IMG/VR virus record: IMGVR_UViG_2541047747_000001 | Source of the DNA: a virus | Lineage: Duplodnaviria > Heunggongvirae > Uroviricota > Caudoviricetes | Strand: one strand, 5' to 3' | Length of the DNA stretch: 46,204 nucleotides | Shown here: piece by piece, positions 5,446 to 14,351 of the stretch | Position numbering within the stretch: position 1 is the stretch's first letter | How the letters are laid out: each line of letters opens with the position of its first letter | Translations under genes and position numbers: made by a program | Notes under the pieces: generated by a model | Database searches by the model: none | Seen by the model: only the letters and a program-made list of their open reading frames with translations | What the model was told of the DNA's origin: nothing

Positions 5446-5455
5446 TGGAGTGGAT

Positions 5456-8400
5456 ATGGCAGCAGTAAAAATCTCAGGTGTGCTGAAAGATGGTGCGGGA
5501 AAACCAATACAGAACTGCACTATTCAACTGAAGGCAAAGCGTAACAGCACCACGGTACTGGTGAACACGGTGGCTTCTGAAAATCCGGATGAAGCCGGAC
5601 GTTACAGCATGGATGTTGAGTATGGCCAGTACAGCGTCACCCTGCTGGTTGAAGGTTTTCCGCCTTCACATGCCGGGACCATTACCGTCTATGAAGGTTC
5701 CAGACCAGGTACGCTGAATGATTTTCTCGGTGCCATGACGGAAGATGATGTCATGCCGGAGGCACTGCGCCGCTTTGAGCAGATGGTGGAAGAGGTGTCA
5801 CGTAACGCCTCCGCGGTTGCACAGAATACGGCAGCCGCGAAAAAATCAGCCAGCGATGCCAGTGCATCAGCCAGCGAGGCGGCAACTCATGCAACCGATG
5901 CTGCAGCCTCAGCACGTGCCGCCAGCACGTCAGCCGGACAGGCCGCGTCGTCGGCTCAGTCAGCGTCTTCCAGCGCAGGAACGGCATCGACAAAGGCCCG
6001 TGAAGCAGCAAAAAGTGCTGCTGCTGCAGAGTCATCAAAAAGCGCGGCAGCTACCAGCGCCAGTGCCGCGAAAACGTCAGAAACGAATGCCGCAGCATCA
6101 CAAAAATCGGCAGCCACTTCTGCATCCACAGCGACCACGAAAGCGTCAGAAGCTGCCACCTCGGCACGGGGTGCGGCGGCCTCAAAAGAGGCAGCGAAAT
6201 CTTCAGAAACGAATGCATCATCAAGTGCCAGTAGTGCAGCTTCCTCGGCAACGGCGGCAGGAAATTCCGCGAAGGCGGCAAAAACGTCCGAGACGAACGC
6301 CAGGTCTTCTGAAACAGCAGCGGGACAGAGCGCCTCAGCTGCGGCAGGTTCAAAAACAGCGGCTGCATTATCTGCCAGTGCCGCGTCAACAAGTGCCGGG
6401 CAGGCCTCAGCCAGTGCCACCGCCGCCGGAAAATCGGCAGAAAGCGCCGCATCATCCGCTTCAACAGCCACAACGAAGGCTGGCAAAGCCACTGAGCAAG
6501 CCACTGCAGCAGCGAGGTCTGCTTCTGCAGCAAAAACCTCTGAAACAAATGCAAAGACTTCAGCAGACAATGCTGCTTCCTCTAAGGCGGCAGCCGCATC
6601 GTCAGCCAGTTCAGCGGCGTCATCGGCATCATCTGCGTCTGCTTCAAAAGATGAGGCGACCAGACAAGCGTCAGCAGCGAAAGGTAGTGCCACGACAGCA
6701 ACAACGAAAGCATCAGAGGCGGCAGGCAGTGCGACGGCGGCATCTCAGAGCAAAGTTGCTGCTGAATCCGCGGCAACGCGTGCCGAAACAGCGGCAAAAC
6801 GGGCAGAGGATATTGCATCCGCCGTGGGGCTTGAGGATGCGAGCACGACGAAAAAGGGGATAGTACAGCTCAGCAGTGCAACAAACAGCACCAGTGAAAA
6901 GCTGGCGGCAACGCCAAAGGCAGTTAAAACTGTTAAAGATAGTTCAGTTCAAAAAACTGGCGACACAATGGGAGGGCAGTTAAAAATCAGCACGATAAAT
7001 GCTCTTCGAATATTCAACCAAGCCTTTGGCCTTATTTTTAGGCGTTCCGAAGATTATCTTCATCTTATTCCGACTAATGAAGGGGAGGGGGAAAATGGAG
7101 ACATCGGTTCATTAAGACCATTCTCTATAAACTTAAGATCAGGGTTGGTGTCCATCGGTAATGGACTAAAAGTTGGTGGTAGTGTTACTGGTAATTTGAC
7201 CGGAAACGCAGATACTGCGACCAAGATCAAGACAGCACGTAAGATTGGGGGCGTGGCATTTGATGGATCGGCAGATATCAACTTGCCTGGAGTCAACGCT
7301 ACCGGTAATCAAAACACTACAGGTAATGCTGCGACCGCCACGAAACTTCAGGCAGCCAGAACGATTAACGGTGTGTCATTTGATGGTAGTGCAAATATCA
7401 CATTGACCCCTTCAAATATTGGGGCATTGGCATTAACTGGAGGGACTCTTTCAGGTGGTTTAACTGCTGCTGGTGAGGTTATTTCAAGGTCAGCAAATGG
7501 TCTGCGTATTGCCTATGGCAACTATGGATTCTTTATCCGAAATGATGGATCAAACACATATTTTATGTTGACAGATTCGGGTAACAGTCTTGGTACGCAC
7601 AATAGCTTAAGGCCGTTTATAATTAGTAACCATACTGGCAATGTTACAATTGCAACTAAATTAAACGCGAGTGGTGGTATCACTGGATCTTTATCGGGTA
7701 ATGCAAGCACAGCAACCAAATTGCAAACTGCAAGGACAATTAACGGCGTAAAATTTGACGGCTCGGCAAATATTGAAGCGTTTCCGCCAGGTGTTCCGCT
7801 GCCGTGGCCATCAGATACACCACCTGCAGGTTATGCGATCATGCAGGGGCAGACGTTTGATAAGGCAGCATATCCGAAACTGGCTATTGCCTATCCTTCA
7901 GGTGTTATTCCAGATATGCGCGGCTGGACAATCAAGGGCAAACCCGCCAGTGGCCGGGCCGTATTGTCTCAGGAACAGGACGGCATAAAATCGCACACCC
8001 ACAGCGCCAGCGCATCCAGTACGGATTTGGGGACGAAAACCACATCGTCGTTTGATTACGGCACTAAATCCACGAATAACACCGGGGCGCATACGCACAG
8101 TCTGAGTGGCTCTACGGGGTCTGCCGGTGTTCATACTCATGGTAATGGTATTCGTTGGCCAGGAGGCGGCGGTTCTGCGTTAGCATTTTATGATGGCGGT
8201 GGGTTCACTTATGTCCAGAATTCACAGTATCAAGTAAGCCCGGAGACTTCTTCCTATAGATCGTATTATCAACGTATTCAGACACAGTCAGCAGGTGCTC
8301 ATACCCACTCGCTGTCTGGTACTGCAGCAAGTTCTGGCGCACATGCACATACTGTAGGTATTGGTGCGCATACGCACTCCGTTGCGATTGGTTCACATGG

Positions 8401-8485
8401 ACACACCATCACCGTTAACGCTGCGGGTAACGCGGAAAACACCGTCAAAAACATCGCATTTAACTATATTGTGAGGCTTGCATAA
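5456..8485 (+). CDS. stf: side tail fibre protein Stf
   Basis: N-terminus [27 protein letters not shown] and C-terminus [18 protein letters not shown] match lambda Stf as recalled; long Ala/Ser-rich KTSETNA repeats; GGAG RBS before the ATG at 5456. Confidence 0.9.
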
Positions 8486-9069
8486 TGGCATTCAGAATGA
8501 GTGAACAAGCACGGACCATAAAAATTTATAATCTGCTGGCCGGAACTAATGAATTTATTGGTGAAGGTGACGCATATATTCCGCCTCATACAGGTCTGCC
8601 AGCAAACAGTACCGATATTGCACCACCAGATATTCCTGCTGGCTTTGTGGCTGTTTTCAACAGTGATGAGGCATCGTGGCATCTCGTTGAAGACCATCGG
8701 GGTAAAACGGTTTATGACGTAGCGTCAGGGGACGAGTTATTTATTTCTGAACTCGGTCCGTTACCGGAAAATGTTACCTGGTTATCGCCGGAAGGGGAGT
8801 TTCAGAAGTGGAACGGCACAGCCTGGGTGAAGGATACGGAAGCAGAAAAACTGTTCCGGATCCGGGAGGCGGAAGAAACAAAAAACAGCCTGATGCAGGT
8901 AGCCAGCGAGCATATTGCGCCGCTTCAGGATGCTGCAGATCTGGAAATTGCAACAGAGGAAGAAATCTCGTTGCTGGAAGCATGGAAAAAGTATCGGGTA
9001 TTGCTGAACCGTGTTGATACGTCAACTGCACCTGATATTGAGTGGCCTACGAACCCTGTCAGGGAGTAA
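8485..9069 (+). CDS. tfa: tail fibre assembly protein Tfa
   Basis: 194 aa, [42 protein letters not shown] nearly identical to lambda Tfa as recalled; start overlaps stf stop (TAATG). Confidence 0.9.
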
Positions 9070-9083
9070 TCATTGGGATTATG

Positions 9084-9116
9084 CCGCAGCACGTCTTAAG
9101 CAAGAACGTGCTGCGG
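9084..9116. terminator. perfect 11-bp inverted repeat between convergent tfa and dinI-like gene (possible bidirectional or factor-dependent terminator)
   Basis: CCGCAGCACGT-cttaagcaaga-ACGTGCTGCGG; no flanking U-tract on either strand. Confidence 0.4.
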
Positions 9117-9184
9117 TTGGATGGTGAACTTTCGATAGTGCGAGTATTGAATGATTTCCAGCCGTTACCGATTTTACGTGTTAA

Positions 9185-9433
9185 TTAGTGAACAAACCAC
9201 TCGTCAGCAGACTCCCAGGTATCTTTCAGAGTTTCCTGAACAAAAGTTTTAGCTGAATCTTTATCGGCGGTGCGCGTAACAGAAAGGCCATCGTTGCTGG
9301 TAGCTTTTACGATCACCTCTACATCGTCATAACGTTTACTGATGCGTCGGGTTAATTCTTCCTTTAACGCATCCACAGCACCGGTTGGCATTTTAGTCAT
9401 TTTTTCTTTGGCTATGCAGATTTCAATACGCAT
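9185..9433 (-). CDS. dinI: DinI-like DNA damage-inducible protein
   Basis: 82 aa; MRIEI...AVDAL..EL.RRI...[10 protein letters not shown] pattern typical of the DinI family; two LexA boxes directly upstream. Confidence 0.8.
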
Positions 9434-9448
9434 AAAAGTCCCTCTACA

Positions 9449-9492
9449 CTGTGTTTGTATACAGTATCATTTTTAACTGTATGGATAAACAG
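9449..9492 (-). promoter_or_regulatory. two LexA (SOS) boxes overlapping the dinI-like promoter
   Basis: CTGTgtttgtatACAG (9449-9464) and CTGTatggataaACAG (9477-9492) fit CTGT-N8-ACAG; minus-strand -35 TTGACA (rc of 9495-9500) with 17-bp spacer to TAAAAA. Confidence 0.75.
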
Positions 9493-9509
9493 TGTCAAGG
9501 GTGAGGGAA

Positions 9510-9790
9510 AGTGATTTTTTGGGGCATGCATGGGGCAAAAATATTTGTTGTGGGGCATTTTGGGGCATGATTGGGACACTTTGTTACATATGAACTTTGC
9601 CGATTTTTATATGACATGGAAATACAACGCTTTGATTCTTCTAAATAAAAAATATGCTCTTGGGCGTTCTTTAGTGATTTTTAAAAATTCCGTATCACGC
9701 AGTTAACATGACGGGTATTAAGGATTAACTTACTGATTTTAATAAGCCTCTGATGTCACTTTGGTGACTATGGGGCATCATTGGGACATA
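9510..9790. other. putative attP region with integrase arm-type repeats
   Basis: Four TGGGGCA repeats at 9520-9567 and an 18-bp direct repeat TGGGGCAT(G/C)ATTGGGACA at 9561-9578 and 9771-9788, next to the int 3' end; core crossover site not identified. Confidence 0.45.
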
Positions 9791-11038
9791 ATCTGTCAGC
9801 TTCTGATTCAGCATTGCGATCTGTTCTGCATTGCTGTCAGTCATCCATGCTCCGTATACATTGAATACCATCTGGGCACTTGCATGGCCCATCTGGCTGG
9901 CAATGAAGCTTGGGTTTGCTCCGGCAGATAATGACCAGCACGCATAAGTGTGTCGTGACTGGTATGCCTTTCGATGCCTGATCCCTGCACGCTTAATGGC
10001 TGTTTCCCATGAGTCACCTACAGAATCGACTTTGTAGACAAAACCTACCTGTTCGCTTTTTCTAACCACTTGAGGGTTAAACACGAAAGTACATTCATGG
10101 TTCACTGAACGTCCATATTCACGTAGTTGCACCTTGATGTTGTACTGCTTACCCAGTCTTGTCATTTCAGCCTGATTTTTCAGGACACTGATAGCGGGCT
10201 GGATAAGGTGCACAACCCTGTTTGTGCTTGCTTCAGTTTTCGGTAGAGTGAACTCACCAAGTTTCGTATAATTGCGCCTGATGGTAATTGTTCCTGCCTT
10301 CAGATCGATATCTTCCCAGGCCAGGGAGACCAGTTCACCGTGACGCATTCCTGTGTACACAGCCAATGACCACAGGTTTTTCGTCTGCTGATGTCGGCAA
10401 GCATCTATCAGGCGAATAAATTCGTCACGAGTTAGCGGATCTGGCTCTGCCCTGGCTCTTTTAAGAGGCTTAATTCCCTGGAAGGGATTTGCTTCTAAGT
10501 AACCGTGATCTGCAGCAAACTGAAACATTCCAGCGATTGTCGTCATGTAATAATTTACAGTAACGACGCTCCGTCCTTTTGCTGCTGCTTTGTTTTTCGT
10601 TGAATTCTGATACCCGGTCAGCAAATCTTTCCTGATATACAGCAATTCCTCTTTGGTTACCGATGACACCAGTCTACTGCCTCCAATTTTCGGAACCATC
10701 GTTCTTGCAACGGATTCATAGCGATTGAATGCATTTGCAGAGATTTCCATTCGTTTCAGATCCAGCCACTTTTCTTCAAGTTCCTTCACCGTAATTTCTT
10801 TTTTACTTACCCCAAAAGCCTGAAGGTTGGGGGAGTCAGGGAACTGTGCAGCATAATCAAAGCTTCCTGTGCGGATGGCAAAACATACTGATGTCCGCAG
10901 TTCCCCGGCGATCTTCCTGTTCTTGGCAGTGTCAGGGACACCAAGATTTTCCCTGACACGTTTACCTTTAAAATTAAACCAGATGCGTAATGTGCCGCCG
11001 TGGTTTTCGACGCCTGTTGGATATTTGACTTTATCCAT
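9725..11038 (-). CDS. int: tyrosine-type site-specific integrase with N-terminal arm-binding domain
   Basis: 437 aa; C-terminal catalytic region with R..HxxR..Y context (SRHTYACWSL, GHASAQMVFNVY); position next to xis and attP. Confidence 0.85.
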   Translation of the reverse strand: MDKVKYPTGVENHGGTLRIWFNFKGKRVRENLGVPDTAKNRKIAGELRTSVCFAIRTGSFDYAAQFPDSPNLQAFGVSKKEITVKELEEKWLDLKRMEISANAFNRYESVARTMVPKIGGSRLVSSVTKEELLYIRKDLLTGYQNSTKNKAAAKGRSVVTVNYYMTTIAGMFQFAADHGYLEANPFQGIKPLKRARAEPDPLTRDEFIRLIDACRHQQTKNLWSLAVYTGMRHGELVSLAWEDIDLKAGTITIRRNYTKLGEFTLPKTEASTNRVVHLIQPAISVLKNQAEMTRLGKQYNIKVQLREYGRSVNHECTFVFNPQVVRKSEQVGFVYKVDSVGDSWETAIKRAGIRHRKAYQSRHTYACWSLSAGANPSFIASQMGHASAQMVFNVYGAWMTDSNAEQIAMLNQKLTDYVPMMPHSHQSDIRGLLKSVS

Positions 11039-11093
11039 CGATACCTCCAGACGCCCAAGAGCGATACGAGCTTACATATTTCATGATATTAAA

Positions 11094-11330
11094 TCACCTG
11101 GGTTGTTTGTTTTTCATTGAGGCGACCCAGGCATCTATTGCTTTTCTGTTATACATACATTCACTGGAAGGCTTTGGATTACCGTCTGGTGATACGTGAA
11201 TATACTCTCTTCCAACCATCCAGCATTCTTTCCGGGCCCGAAGAATTGTGCCTGGTTTGAGCCCGGTAATTGCGATAAGAACGCTTTCACAAACCCATTC
11301 ATTGGGAGCCAGTTGAATCACATTGCCCAT
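11094..11330 (-). CDS. xis: excisionase-like small DNA-binding protein
   Basis: 78-aa ORF immediately upstream of int on the same strand; call is mainly positional. Confidence 0.55.
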   Translation of the reverse strand: MGNVIQLAPNEWVCESVLIAITGLKPGTILRARKECWMVGREYIHVSPDGNPKPSSECMYNRKAIDAWVASMKNKQPR

Positions 11331-11488
11331 GTATTACCTCACACAACACTCAGCCCACGGCAGTGGCACCACACTTCAAACATTCGCTTCACAACTTCAC
11401 GACAGTAGAAGCCGTCAACATCTCGCGTCAGGTCATAGCGATTGCCGTAACGCTGGTGGACCCATCGTTCAAATGCTTTATTCATTCT

Positions 11489-11767
11489 TTACTTCCTTTT
11501 TATGGCTCGTAATTTTTTCAGGTGCTTTTCCTGCTCAGTGTCCGCGAGAATTTTGCGGTACTCCTGGTGGTCAATATGTTCGAACAGGCAGTTTAACTCA
11601 CCAATGCGTACCCGCCCGGATCGTCCGTCCATCCGTCGAAAGAACACTGAGTGCTCAGTGATGCGAGTAATCACCACGGGGTATCCGGCTCTGTCCGTGT
11701 ATATCTGACCGCGTTGAATCAAAGCGAACATGTGGTTATCCCCATCGACAAATCGAGAACACAACAA
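11489..11767 (-). CDS. hypothetical protein (small early-left gene)
   Basis: 92-aa ORF co-oriented with neighbours; real start may be an internal Met. Confidence 0.4.
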   Translation of the reverse strand: MLCSRFVDGDNHMFALIQRGQIYTDRAGYPVVITRITEHSVFFRRMDGRSGRVRIGELNCLFEHIDHQEYRKILADTEQEKHLKKLRAIKRK

Positions 11768-13826: not shown

Positions 13827-14113
13827 GCTGATTCCCCTTTCTCTGCTCTCTCCTGTCGGAACATCACTATCATCAGGTCGCCTTTTGTCGCTATCCTGGC
13901 TGTTGTACCTGGTTCAATGCGGCTAAGCTCAAATGCGTCATAGAACGCTTCTAATGCCTTCTGGCGTAGTTCCTGTTTGCGCCGTTTTTTCCACTGTTTT
14001 AGGAAAATGGAACCCAGCCATCGCCATGTACGGGACATGATGTAAAGCCAACCGAGAAGTGCCAGGCCGACATTCAGGGCCGTTTCTATGGTTAGTTGTG
14101 AGTCAGTTGCCAT
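13823..14113 (-). CDS. hypothetical small membrane protein
   Basis: 96 aa with a hydrophobic segment LNVGLALLGWLYIM; coupled to the downstream gene. Confidence 0.45.
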   Translation of the reverse strand: MATDSQLTIETALNVGLALLGWLYIMSRTWRWLGSIFLKQWKKRRKQELRQKALEAFYDAFELSRIEPGTTARIATKGDLMIVMFRQERAEKGESA

Positions 14114-14351
14114 TTCTTACCTGTTTAAGTAACTGGTTGAACATAACACTTAGGGGATTGCTGTATCCAAACGGCAGATTGTTTACGCAGTACAGAATCA
14201 TTTTGTTTTTTTCTCCAGTTCGTACTATTAACCCATTCCACAATAACCGTGATAATTCATTACTGATAGAAGTTGCGCTTCTTCCAAGTGCGAGGGATAT
14301 ATCTTCTCTACTGCAATCTGGATTTTCCTGGATATACTCGATAACGGTCAT
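14103..14351 (-). CDS. small winged-helix DNA-binding protein (hypothetical)
   Basis: MTVIEYIQENPDCSREDISLALGRSATSISNELSRLLWNGLIVR has an HTH-like pattern; start chosen at internal Met to avoid overlapping the upstream gene. Confidence 0.45.
   Translation of the reverse strand: MTVIEYIQENPDCSREDISLALGRSATSISNELSRLLWNGLIVRTGEKNKMILYCVNNLPFGYSNPLSVMFNQLLKQVRNGN

Follow-up and report, generated by a model that had tools for sequence, protein, structure and literature searches.

The DNA analyzed here, a stretch of 46,204 nt referred to below as the window, is a lambdoid phage genome in vegetative gene order. Genes for a side tail fiber and a tail-fiber assembly protein are followed by a DinI-like gene and, beyond a gap of 290 bp, by int and the adjoining xis (Table 1). 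The closest phage records, those of PhiR49_2 and phiP27, share with the window its integration module and a portion of its early region. Xis is a DUF1233 protein and the likely directionality factor of the system; its alignment with the counterpart in Salmonella phage SP-016 is clearly conserved. A search of positions 9000-11500 for Rfam families and tRNA genes found none within the phage attachment site (attP).

Other features were noted in the same neighborhood. The middle ~400 residues of the side tail fiber protein are almost all Ala, Ser, and Thr. Between the tail-fiber assembly and DinI-like genes, positions 9084-9115 (+) partially match the 3' end of the Rfam family CssrB, with 36 bits against a gathering score of 76. 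Two LexA-box matches (CTGT-N8-ACAG; 9449-9464 and 9477-9492) overlap a sigma-70-like promoter (9498-9469, minus strand) standing ahead of the DinI-like gene, which therefore looks SOS-regulated. On the minus strand, RNA from 9440-9501 is predicted to form a hairpin (-23.4 kcal/mol, z = -3.7), followed by ACUUUUAU. Seen from int, this hairpin lies just past attP, the place of the lambda sib retroregulator, so that read-through RNA from int would contain it only in the unintegrated phage.

Table 1. Genes and proposed attachment-site elements of the integration region (positions in the window)
Feature	Position	Strand	Basis, occurrence, or context
Side tail fiber gene	5450-8485	+	Position in gene order
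Tail-fiber assembly protein gene	8485-9069	+	Position in gene order
DinI-like gene	9185-9433	-	Position in gene order
Distal P-arm pair, TGGGGCA at 9520 and 9531, 11 bp apart	9520-9537	+	Also in phiP27 and VT2-Sakai
Single extra P-arm site TGGGGCA, 10 bp upstream of the proximal pair	9551-9557	+	Layout recurs in IMG/VR
Proximal P-arm pair, TGGGGCA TGAT TGGGACA	9561-9578	+	In nearly every relative
Two GAAnTTY-like elements ~10 bp apart (GAACTTT, GATTTTT), beside the proximal pair	9592-9608	+	AAnTT columns conserved among 27 aligned representatives
IHF-like site in the P arm, AATCAAAGCGTTG	9625-9637	-	Consensus match (perfect to WATCAANNNNTTR)
27-bp block between P arm and core, GCTCYTGGRCGWTCTTYRNYRATTWT	9656-9682	+	Conserved in five attPs picked by Int homology alone
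Core: C half-site ATCACG 9694-9699, overlap CAGTTAA 9700-9706, C' half-site CATGAC 9707-9712	9694-9712	+	Predicted from the family consensus
int, tyrosine integrase with N-terminal arm-binding domain	9725-11038	-	Pfam PF12167 and PF00589
IHF-like site H' in the P' arm, AATCAGTAAGTTA, overlapping the int stop and final codons	9726-9738	-	Consensus match (to WATCARNNNNTTR)
P' arm pair, TGGGGCA TCAT TGGGACA, int codons 417-423	9771-9788	+	Kept in homologues
xis, excisionase (DUF1233)	11094-11330	-	Pfam PF06806 at 1e-32; adjoins int

Heptamer repeats and the crossover in yecE

The original prediction drew attention to four copies of TGGGGCA in 50 bp and to an 18-bp repeat, one copy of which lies in the last codons of int; all of this is correct. 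The heptamer begins at 9520, 9531, 9551, and 9561 (48 bp in all), with a fifth copy at 9771, and the 18-mer TGGGGCATSATTGGGACA is found exactly at 9561-9578 and 9771-9788. The second occurrence corresponds to codons 417-423 of 437 (Y-V-P-M-M-P-H), 14 codons ahead of the stop. When the word is relaxed to TGGGRCA, TGGGACA at 9572 and 9782 is added, giving seven copies between 9520 and 9788. All seven lie on the + strand; successive copies start 11, 20, 10, and 11 bp apart on the left, and the two on the right are 11 bp apart. The two copies at 9520-9537 thus make a third pair with the 11-bp spacing. No one-mismatch heptamers were found on either strand of 9440-9860.

Over the entire window the relaxed word shows no excess, with 14 copies against 15.7 expected. 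Seven of these 14 lie inside 269 bp, where 0.09 is expected (Poisson P ~1e-11, or ~4e-7 once multiplied by every window position). The paired form TGGGRCA-N4-TGGGRCA occurs three times against an expectation of 0.10, and none of 100 shuffles gave three.

Aligning 9430-9800 to host genomes, as had been proposed for finding the core and the host target, located both: they are nucleotides 86-96 of yecE. Matches were present in 772 of 5,426 complete E. coli genomes, none of which contained 9430-9800 unbroken. The matches form an attR set that covers 9430-9718 and an attL set that begins at 9696, and in ~300 E. coli genomes the junctions adjoin yecE. The O104:H4 strain has two junctions 48 kb apart, of which the dinI-side one is flanked by yecD and a 5' stub of yecE and the int-side one by the remainder of yecE, yecN, and cmoA. 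When attP, the O104:H4 attL and attR, and the empty yecE of K-12 were aligned, 11 bp, CACGCAGTTAA, were common to all, at 9696-9706. This crossover falls between the two repeat clusters and not elsewhere; from the middle of the overlap assigned below, the heptamer centers lie at -180, -169, -149, -139, and -128 on one side and at +71 and +82 on the other.

To the right of the 11-bp core, attP and yecE are only partly similar (CATGACGGGTAT versus AGTGGCGGGCAT), which is why the BLAST match ran on to 9718. The phage sequence at 9707-9718 imitates yecE, with TRHV in the phage where yecE has ARHF, and in lysogens RefSeq calls a 256-residue DUF72 protein that begins inside the prophage (L005, 778-1548). 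The phiP27 record carries the same 11 bases at both ends, annotated as attL and attR, and the PhiR49_2 record stops at window position 9697. Integration of Stx phages in yecE, with a 21-bp att, has been published (PMC8112680).

The aligned junctions place strand exchange within 9696-9706. In attB, a 9-bp inverted repeat, GCCCTCCAC/GTGGCGGGC, surrounds GCAGTTAAA. Among the retrieved sequences, several core classes are set at a constant distance from the conserved block. They comprise GTCACG-CAGTTAA-AGTGGC (the yecE junctions), GTCACG-CGCGTAA-CGTGAC (a perfect inverted repeat), TTCATG-GTTTCAA-YATGTC (the wrbA type), CTCATG-TGATGGG-SATGCA, ATCACA-TCCTTTC-AATGAT, and TWCATA-TTATAAA-AATGTA, and the family consensus is TCAYG-N7-CRTGA. 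Exchange most likely takes place in the 7-bp overlap CAGTTAA (9700-9706), which is predicted from this consensus, the data themselves bounding the crossover only to 11 bp. The identity between attP and attB shares its right end with the predicted overlap, and the same is true of the wrbA class.

The probable arm word across the integrase family and inside int

A translated search of the phage collection returned ~160 records with Int 60-80% identical. We examined the attPs of VT2-Sakai (Int 67% identical), Stx2d phage 112808 (76%), Salmonella phage SP-016 (63%), and phiP27 (95%). Each of these has a TGGGRCA pair in the last codons of int and 3-4 further copies 120-190 bp past the core. Phages with Int only 63-76% identical, at least one of them with another target (VT2-Sakai, wrbA-type core), thus carry the same 11-bp-spaced pairs at the same distances on both sides. 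The five reconstructed attPs, when aligned, are mostly diverged apart from a few islands, namely the arm pairs, the block GCTCYTGGRCGWTCTT..GATTTT, the core frame, and a YTGA element in the P' arm.

An independent sample of P arms was obtained by searching IMG/VR with the conserved block alone, so that the motif itself was not used. All 104 distinct P arms with enough upstream DNA have TGGGRCA at -92 to -95 and at -81 to -84 from the block. The word is nearly always paired and its strand is constant, with total copies ranging from 2 to 6 and distal P-arm copies from 0 to 4. The five-site layout of the window (-136, -125, -105, -95, and -84 from the block) recurs in IMG/VR contigs L175, L231, L248, and L280. 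Among 27 representatives <85% identical, the proximal pair is the stretch of highest information. No consistent covariation was seen between the A/G position of the heptamer in the proximal P pair and that in the P' pair, so this position is simply degenerate.

The pair in the P' arm is also coding sequence, and we therefore compared DNA and peptide in 76 Int homologues (45-89% identical, one genome per Enterobacterales species). Exact TGYCCCA-N4-TGYCCCA stands in the same place and the same frame in ~70 of the 76, and two further homologues keep the pair downstream of a frameshift in int. Within the pair, the information at third-codon positions is 2.0, 2.0, 1.7, 2.0, and 2.0 bits in 48 representatives <90% identical; the third positions of the 30 upstream codons average 0.55 bits. 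The codon ahead of the first half-site may encode F, Y, N, S, D, C, or T, and its last base is always T (NNT). M, V, or L is always encoded by NTG in this region and H or Q by CAN, and the proline codon never departs from CCA in the first half-site or from CCC in the second. Past the pair, the Int tail is unconserved and 5-14 residues long. Since synonymous positions are frozen and residues vary, the selected unit is the DNA heptamer and not the peptide. H' and the P' pair, which are the whole P' arm, lie within the last 22 codons of int; the stretch thus has two codes, of which the DNA motif is the conserved one.

Some exceptions to the word are changed in both half-sites. A clade of Rahnella, Hafnia, and Yersinia has TGCCCCG in both P' half-sites, one change being synonymous (CCA to CCG) and the matching one not (CAx to CGx), and a Proteus locus has TGTCCCC in both. 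These matched changes are suggestive of concerted change, and are too few to weigh heavily. A scan of IMG/VR for CGGGGCA pairs gave mostly chance matches in GC-rich phages, and searching with an integrase of the TGCCCCG clade led to prophage contigs that end at int and lack the P arm. For this clade, a pattern made of the block and a guessed core had no matches, and a three-copy CGGGGCA pattern had 20, none of them in contigs with a TGCCCCG-clade integrase.

In the Rahnella/Yersinia clade, the integrases, like others 68% identical to them (L147, L150, L158, L416, L419), adjoin the same host gene end (…DWQDHI(L/M)NKP.WA.*), downstream of int, and in these the prophage appears to supply replacement last codons for that host gene. 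Unrelated IMG/VR contigs (L300, ~14080-14140; L365, ~130-165; L370, ~7350-7500; L341, ~1808-1850) contain arrays of CGGGGCA/CGGGACA with an 11-bp period, some apparently within reading frames, which may be iterons for replication or belong to other elements as arm sites.

The integrase and candidate accessory elements of attP

Int matches PF12167 at residues 7-70 (1e-23) and carries the catalytic domain PF00589 (3e-18), and its AlphaFold model has three strands and one helix in residues 1-80. No solved structure of a close relative was found, the structural matches being distant ones to the catalytic domain. A comparison of domain identities over 73 loci was biased, as the loci had been found with arm-binding-domain peptides, and an alignment of five phage integrases was used instead. 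In it, 43 of 56 columns are invariant in residues 5-60, versus 43 of 115 in core-binding residues 81-195, making the arm-binding domain the most conserved part of Int. A conserved arm-binding domain beside a variable core-binding region fits an invariant arm word with varied cores.

By our own assignment of the residues, R232, K267, R362, H385, and Y395 are invariant and Y359 occupies the place of the first histidine. The IntBPP-1 subgroup is described as having a DUF3596/PF12167 N-terminal domain and a weakly conserved first histidine in the RKHRH pentad, and Stx2a-phage and Gifsy-2 integrases have been named as putative members (PMC8138268). The Int of the window shows both features, the PF12167 domain and Y359 in place of that histidine.

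Between arms and core, the consensus-matched IHF-like sites recur among relatives. Of 14 distinct intact attPs, 12 have an H'-like site (at most 1 mismatch) +25/+26 from the overlap, and most have a P-arm IHF-like site (0-1 mismatch) at -75 or ~-65. The GAAnTTY-like elements beside the proximal pair are, judging from their conservation, possibly an accessory-protein site, perhaps for Xis. The 27-bp block is kept down to an Int identity of 63% and in at least one attP with another core, and this second conserved element leaves a lambda-style model of attP incomplete. Xis is the obvious candidate partner for both the GAAnTTY elements and the block. The block was also considered as an IHF or Fis site, to which no convincing match was seen by eye.

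Interpretation and relation to known attachment sites

We consider it likely that 9520-9788 is the complete attP of a lambdoid phage integrating in E. coli yecE, with the heptamers as the arm sites of Int. That TGGGRCA is the Int arm site is very probable by analogy with lambda and given its presence on both arms. The original prediction had called the repeats probable integrase arm-binding sites; this gains support from heptamers that flank the core at lambda-like arm positions, stay fixed in relatives with other cores, and are constrained at the DNA level, together with an Int that has an arm-binding domain, and from these we infer binding. As expected of a lambda-type system, Int has an N-terminal arm-binding domain besides its core-binding and catalytic domains, a repeated word unlike the core word (TCAYG) lies on both sides of the crossover within ~50-180 bp, and inverted half-sites surround a predicted overlap of 7 bp, inside the expected 6-8 bp, that is identical in attP and attB. 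As in yecE phages of the phiP27 type, the integrase is of the same type and the core is identical to yecE 86-96.

The proposed mechanism is modeled on the Int/IHF/Xis architecture of lambda attP (PMC4880445). The PF12167 N-terminal domain of Int would bind the seven heptamers (P, the long arm, has five and P', the short one, two), and the central and C-terminal domains of the same molecules would bind the core, so that Int would bridge arm and core sites. IHF at the two predicted sites would bend the arms back onto the core. Recombination in CAGTTAA would then yield attL (the 3' part of yecE, O, P', and int) and attR (P, O, and the 5' stub of yecE), and Xis acting on the P arm would drive excision.

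Four other readings were weighed. It is conceivable, if unlikely, that the attP of this integrase family is built unlike that of lambda, with direct-repeat arm sites mostly in pairs 11 bp apart, onto which arm-binding domains might load as cooperative pairs, the P' arm in int, and a block that is perhaps bound by an accessory factor. Int at P' could then also affect int itself, perhaps by keeping it from being transcribed, in concert with the 9440-9501 hairpin.

Somewhat less probable still is that the heptamers bind the DUF1233 Xis or another directionality factor, with the Int arm sites elsewhere, for example in the block. In its favor, Xis filaments typically form on tandem direct repeats with helical spacing, Xis is conserved in the family along with the repeats, and the block looks like the heptamer with one G removed. 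Against this, the heptamers stand on both arms, at ~-130 to -180 and +70 to +80, which are arm-type positions, and the most conserved part of Int, its arm-binding domain, matches the most conserved DNA word. The Xis sites of lambda and its relatives are confined to the P arm near the core (PMC4880445).

We regard as very improbable that the P-arm repeats are operators or iterons for a neighbor such as the SOS-controlled dinI-like gene and that the copy in int is kept for a peptide, (A/V)P-x-(M/V)P(H/Q). The dinI-like promoter does have its -35 hexamer 22 bp from the start of the first heptamer, and the peptide AP.MP is widely conserved; yet the distance of the repeats is fixed to the core and not to the neighboring gene, and the P arm of VT2-Sakai, which adjoins an unrelated gene without dinI, still has four copies. 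Nor would a peptide explain a coding copy whose synonymous positions are frozen as the flanking residues change, or the TGCCCCG that reached both copies in Rahnella, Hafnia, and Yersinia by one synonymous and one nonsynonymous change.

The chances are slight in the extreme that the repeats reflect a real + strand gene, the 58-codon open frame 9530-9706 that spans the P arm and whose equivalent the phiP27 record annotates as hypothetical protein L58, or a mere cluster by chance: the frame is open in only 7 of 26 diverged relatives, with indels that are not multiples of three, and it ends in the core, so that integration would break it, and a chance cluster is excluded by the statistics and by family-wide conservation. 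ORFs called across the P arm, such as this one and L58, are probably not genes.

Returning to the reading as a lambda-style attP with TGGGRCA arm sites, the kind of element and its mechanism are textbook, the yecE core is already annotated for phiP27, and current understanding is not overturned. In the searchable literature, which leaves older subscription papers outside reach, we found no account of the arm word, core rule, or conserved block of this integrase family. Queries there combining "arm-type" with 933W, wrbA, or Stx, or TGGGGCA with "arm-type", returned no paper, and the accessible portion of the Phi24B recombination paper defines no arm-type words for the family. Members of this family include the integrases of major Stx phages (at wrbA, 933W/VT2-Sakai; at yecE, phiP27 together with many Stx1/Stx2 phages) and those of Gifsy-2-like Salmonella phages. 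The attP map (TGGGRCA, TCAYG-N7-CRTGA, the IHF-like positions, and the conserved block) opens to direct testing the question of which sites lysogeny and induction-linked excision require, and also bears on how targets change with fixed arms and on integration vectors made from these integrases. In annotation, prophage ends can be placed precisely by a TCAYG-N7-CRTGA core that has a TGGGRCA pair at ~70 bp.

Among relatives, phiP27 (Stx2e, AJ298298, in yecE) is the nearest known system, with Int 95% identical, an identical core CACGCAGTTAA, and the same arm pairs and block. It differs in having four exact P-arm heptamers versus five here, TGGGACA in both P' half-sites, a P arm annotated as L58 with no arm sites annotated, and no dinI beside the P arm. 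VT2-Sakai/933W-type Stx2 phages and Salmonella Gifsy-2-like phages, with Int 63-76% identical, have the pairs on both arms at the same distances and the same block, but differ in core and overlap and hence in host target, the VT2-Sakai core being CATG-GTTTCAA-CATG.

The lambda attP comprises the arm-type sites P1, P2, and P'1-P'3, the IHF sites H1, H2, and H', X1-X2, and the core C-O-C'. All the sites here are in one orientation, mostly in pairs 11 bp apart, unlike those of lambda, where the P2 arm site is inverted. Further differences are the arm word TGGGRCA, seven sites (5 + 2) here against five (2 + 3) in lambda, a PF12167 arm domain, a P' arm wholly within the int frame, and a target inside a host reading frame, that of yecE. 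The two attachment sites also have features in common: the integrase is heterobivalent, P is the long arm and is distant from int, P' is short and next to int (PMC4880445), the arm words are unrelated to the core word, IHF-type sites (here consensus matches) lie between arms and core, a 7-bp overlap (here predicted) is bordered by inverted core sites, and xis stands beside int.
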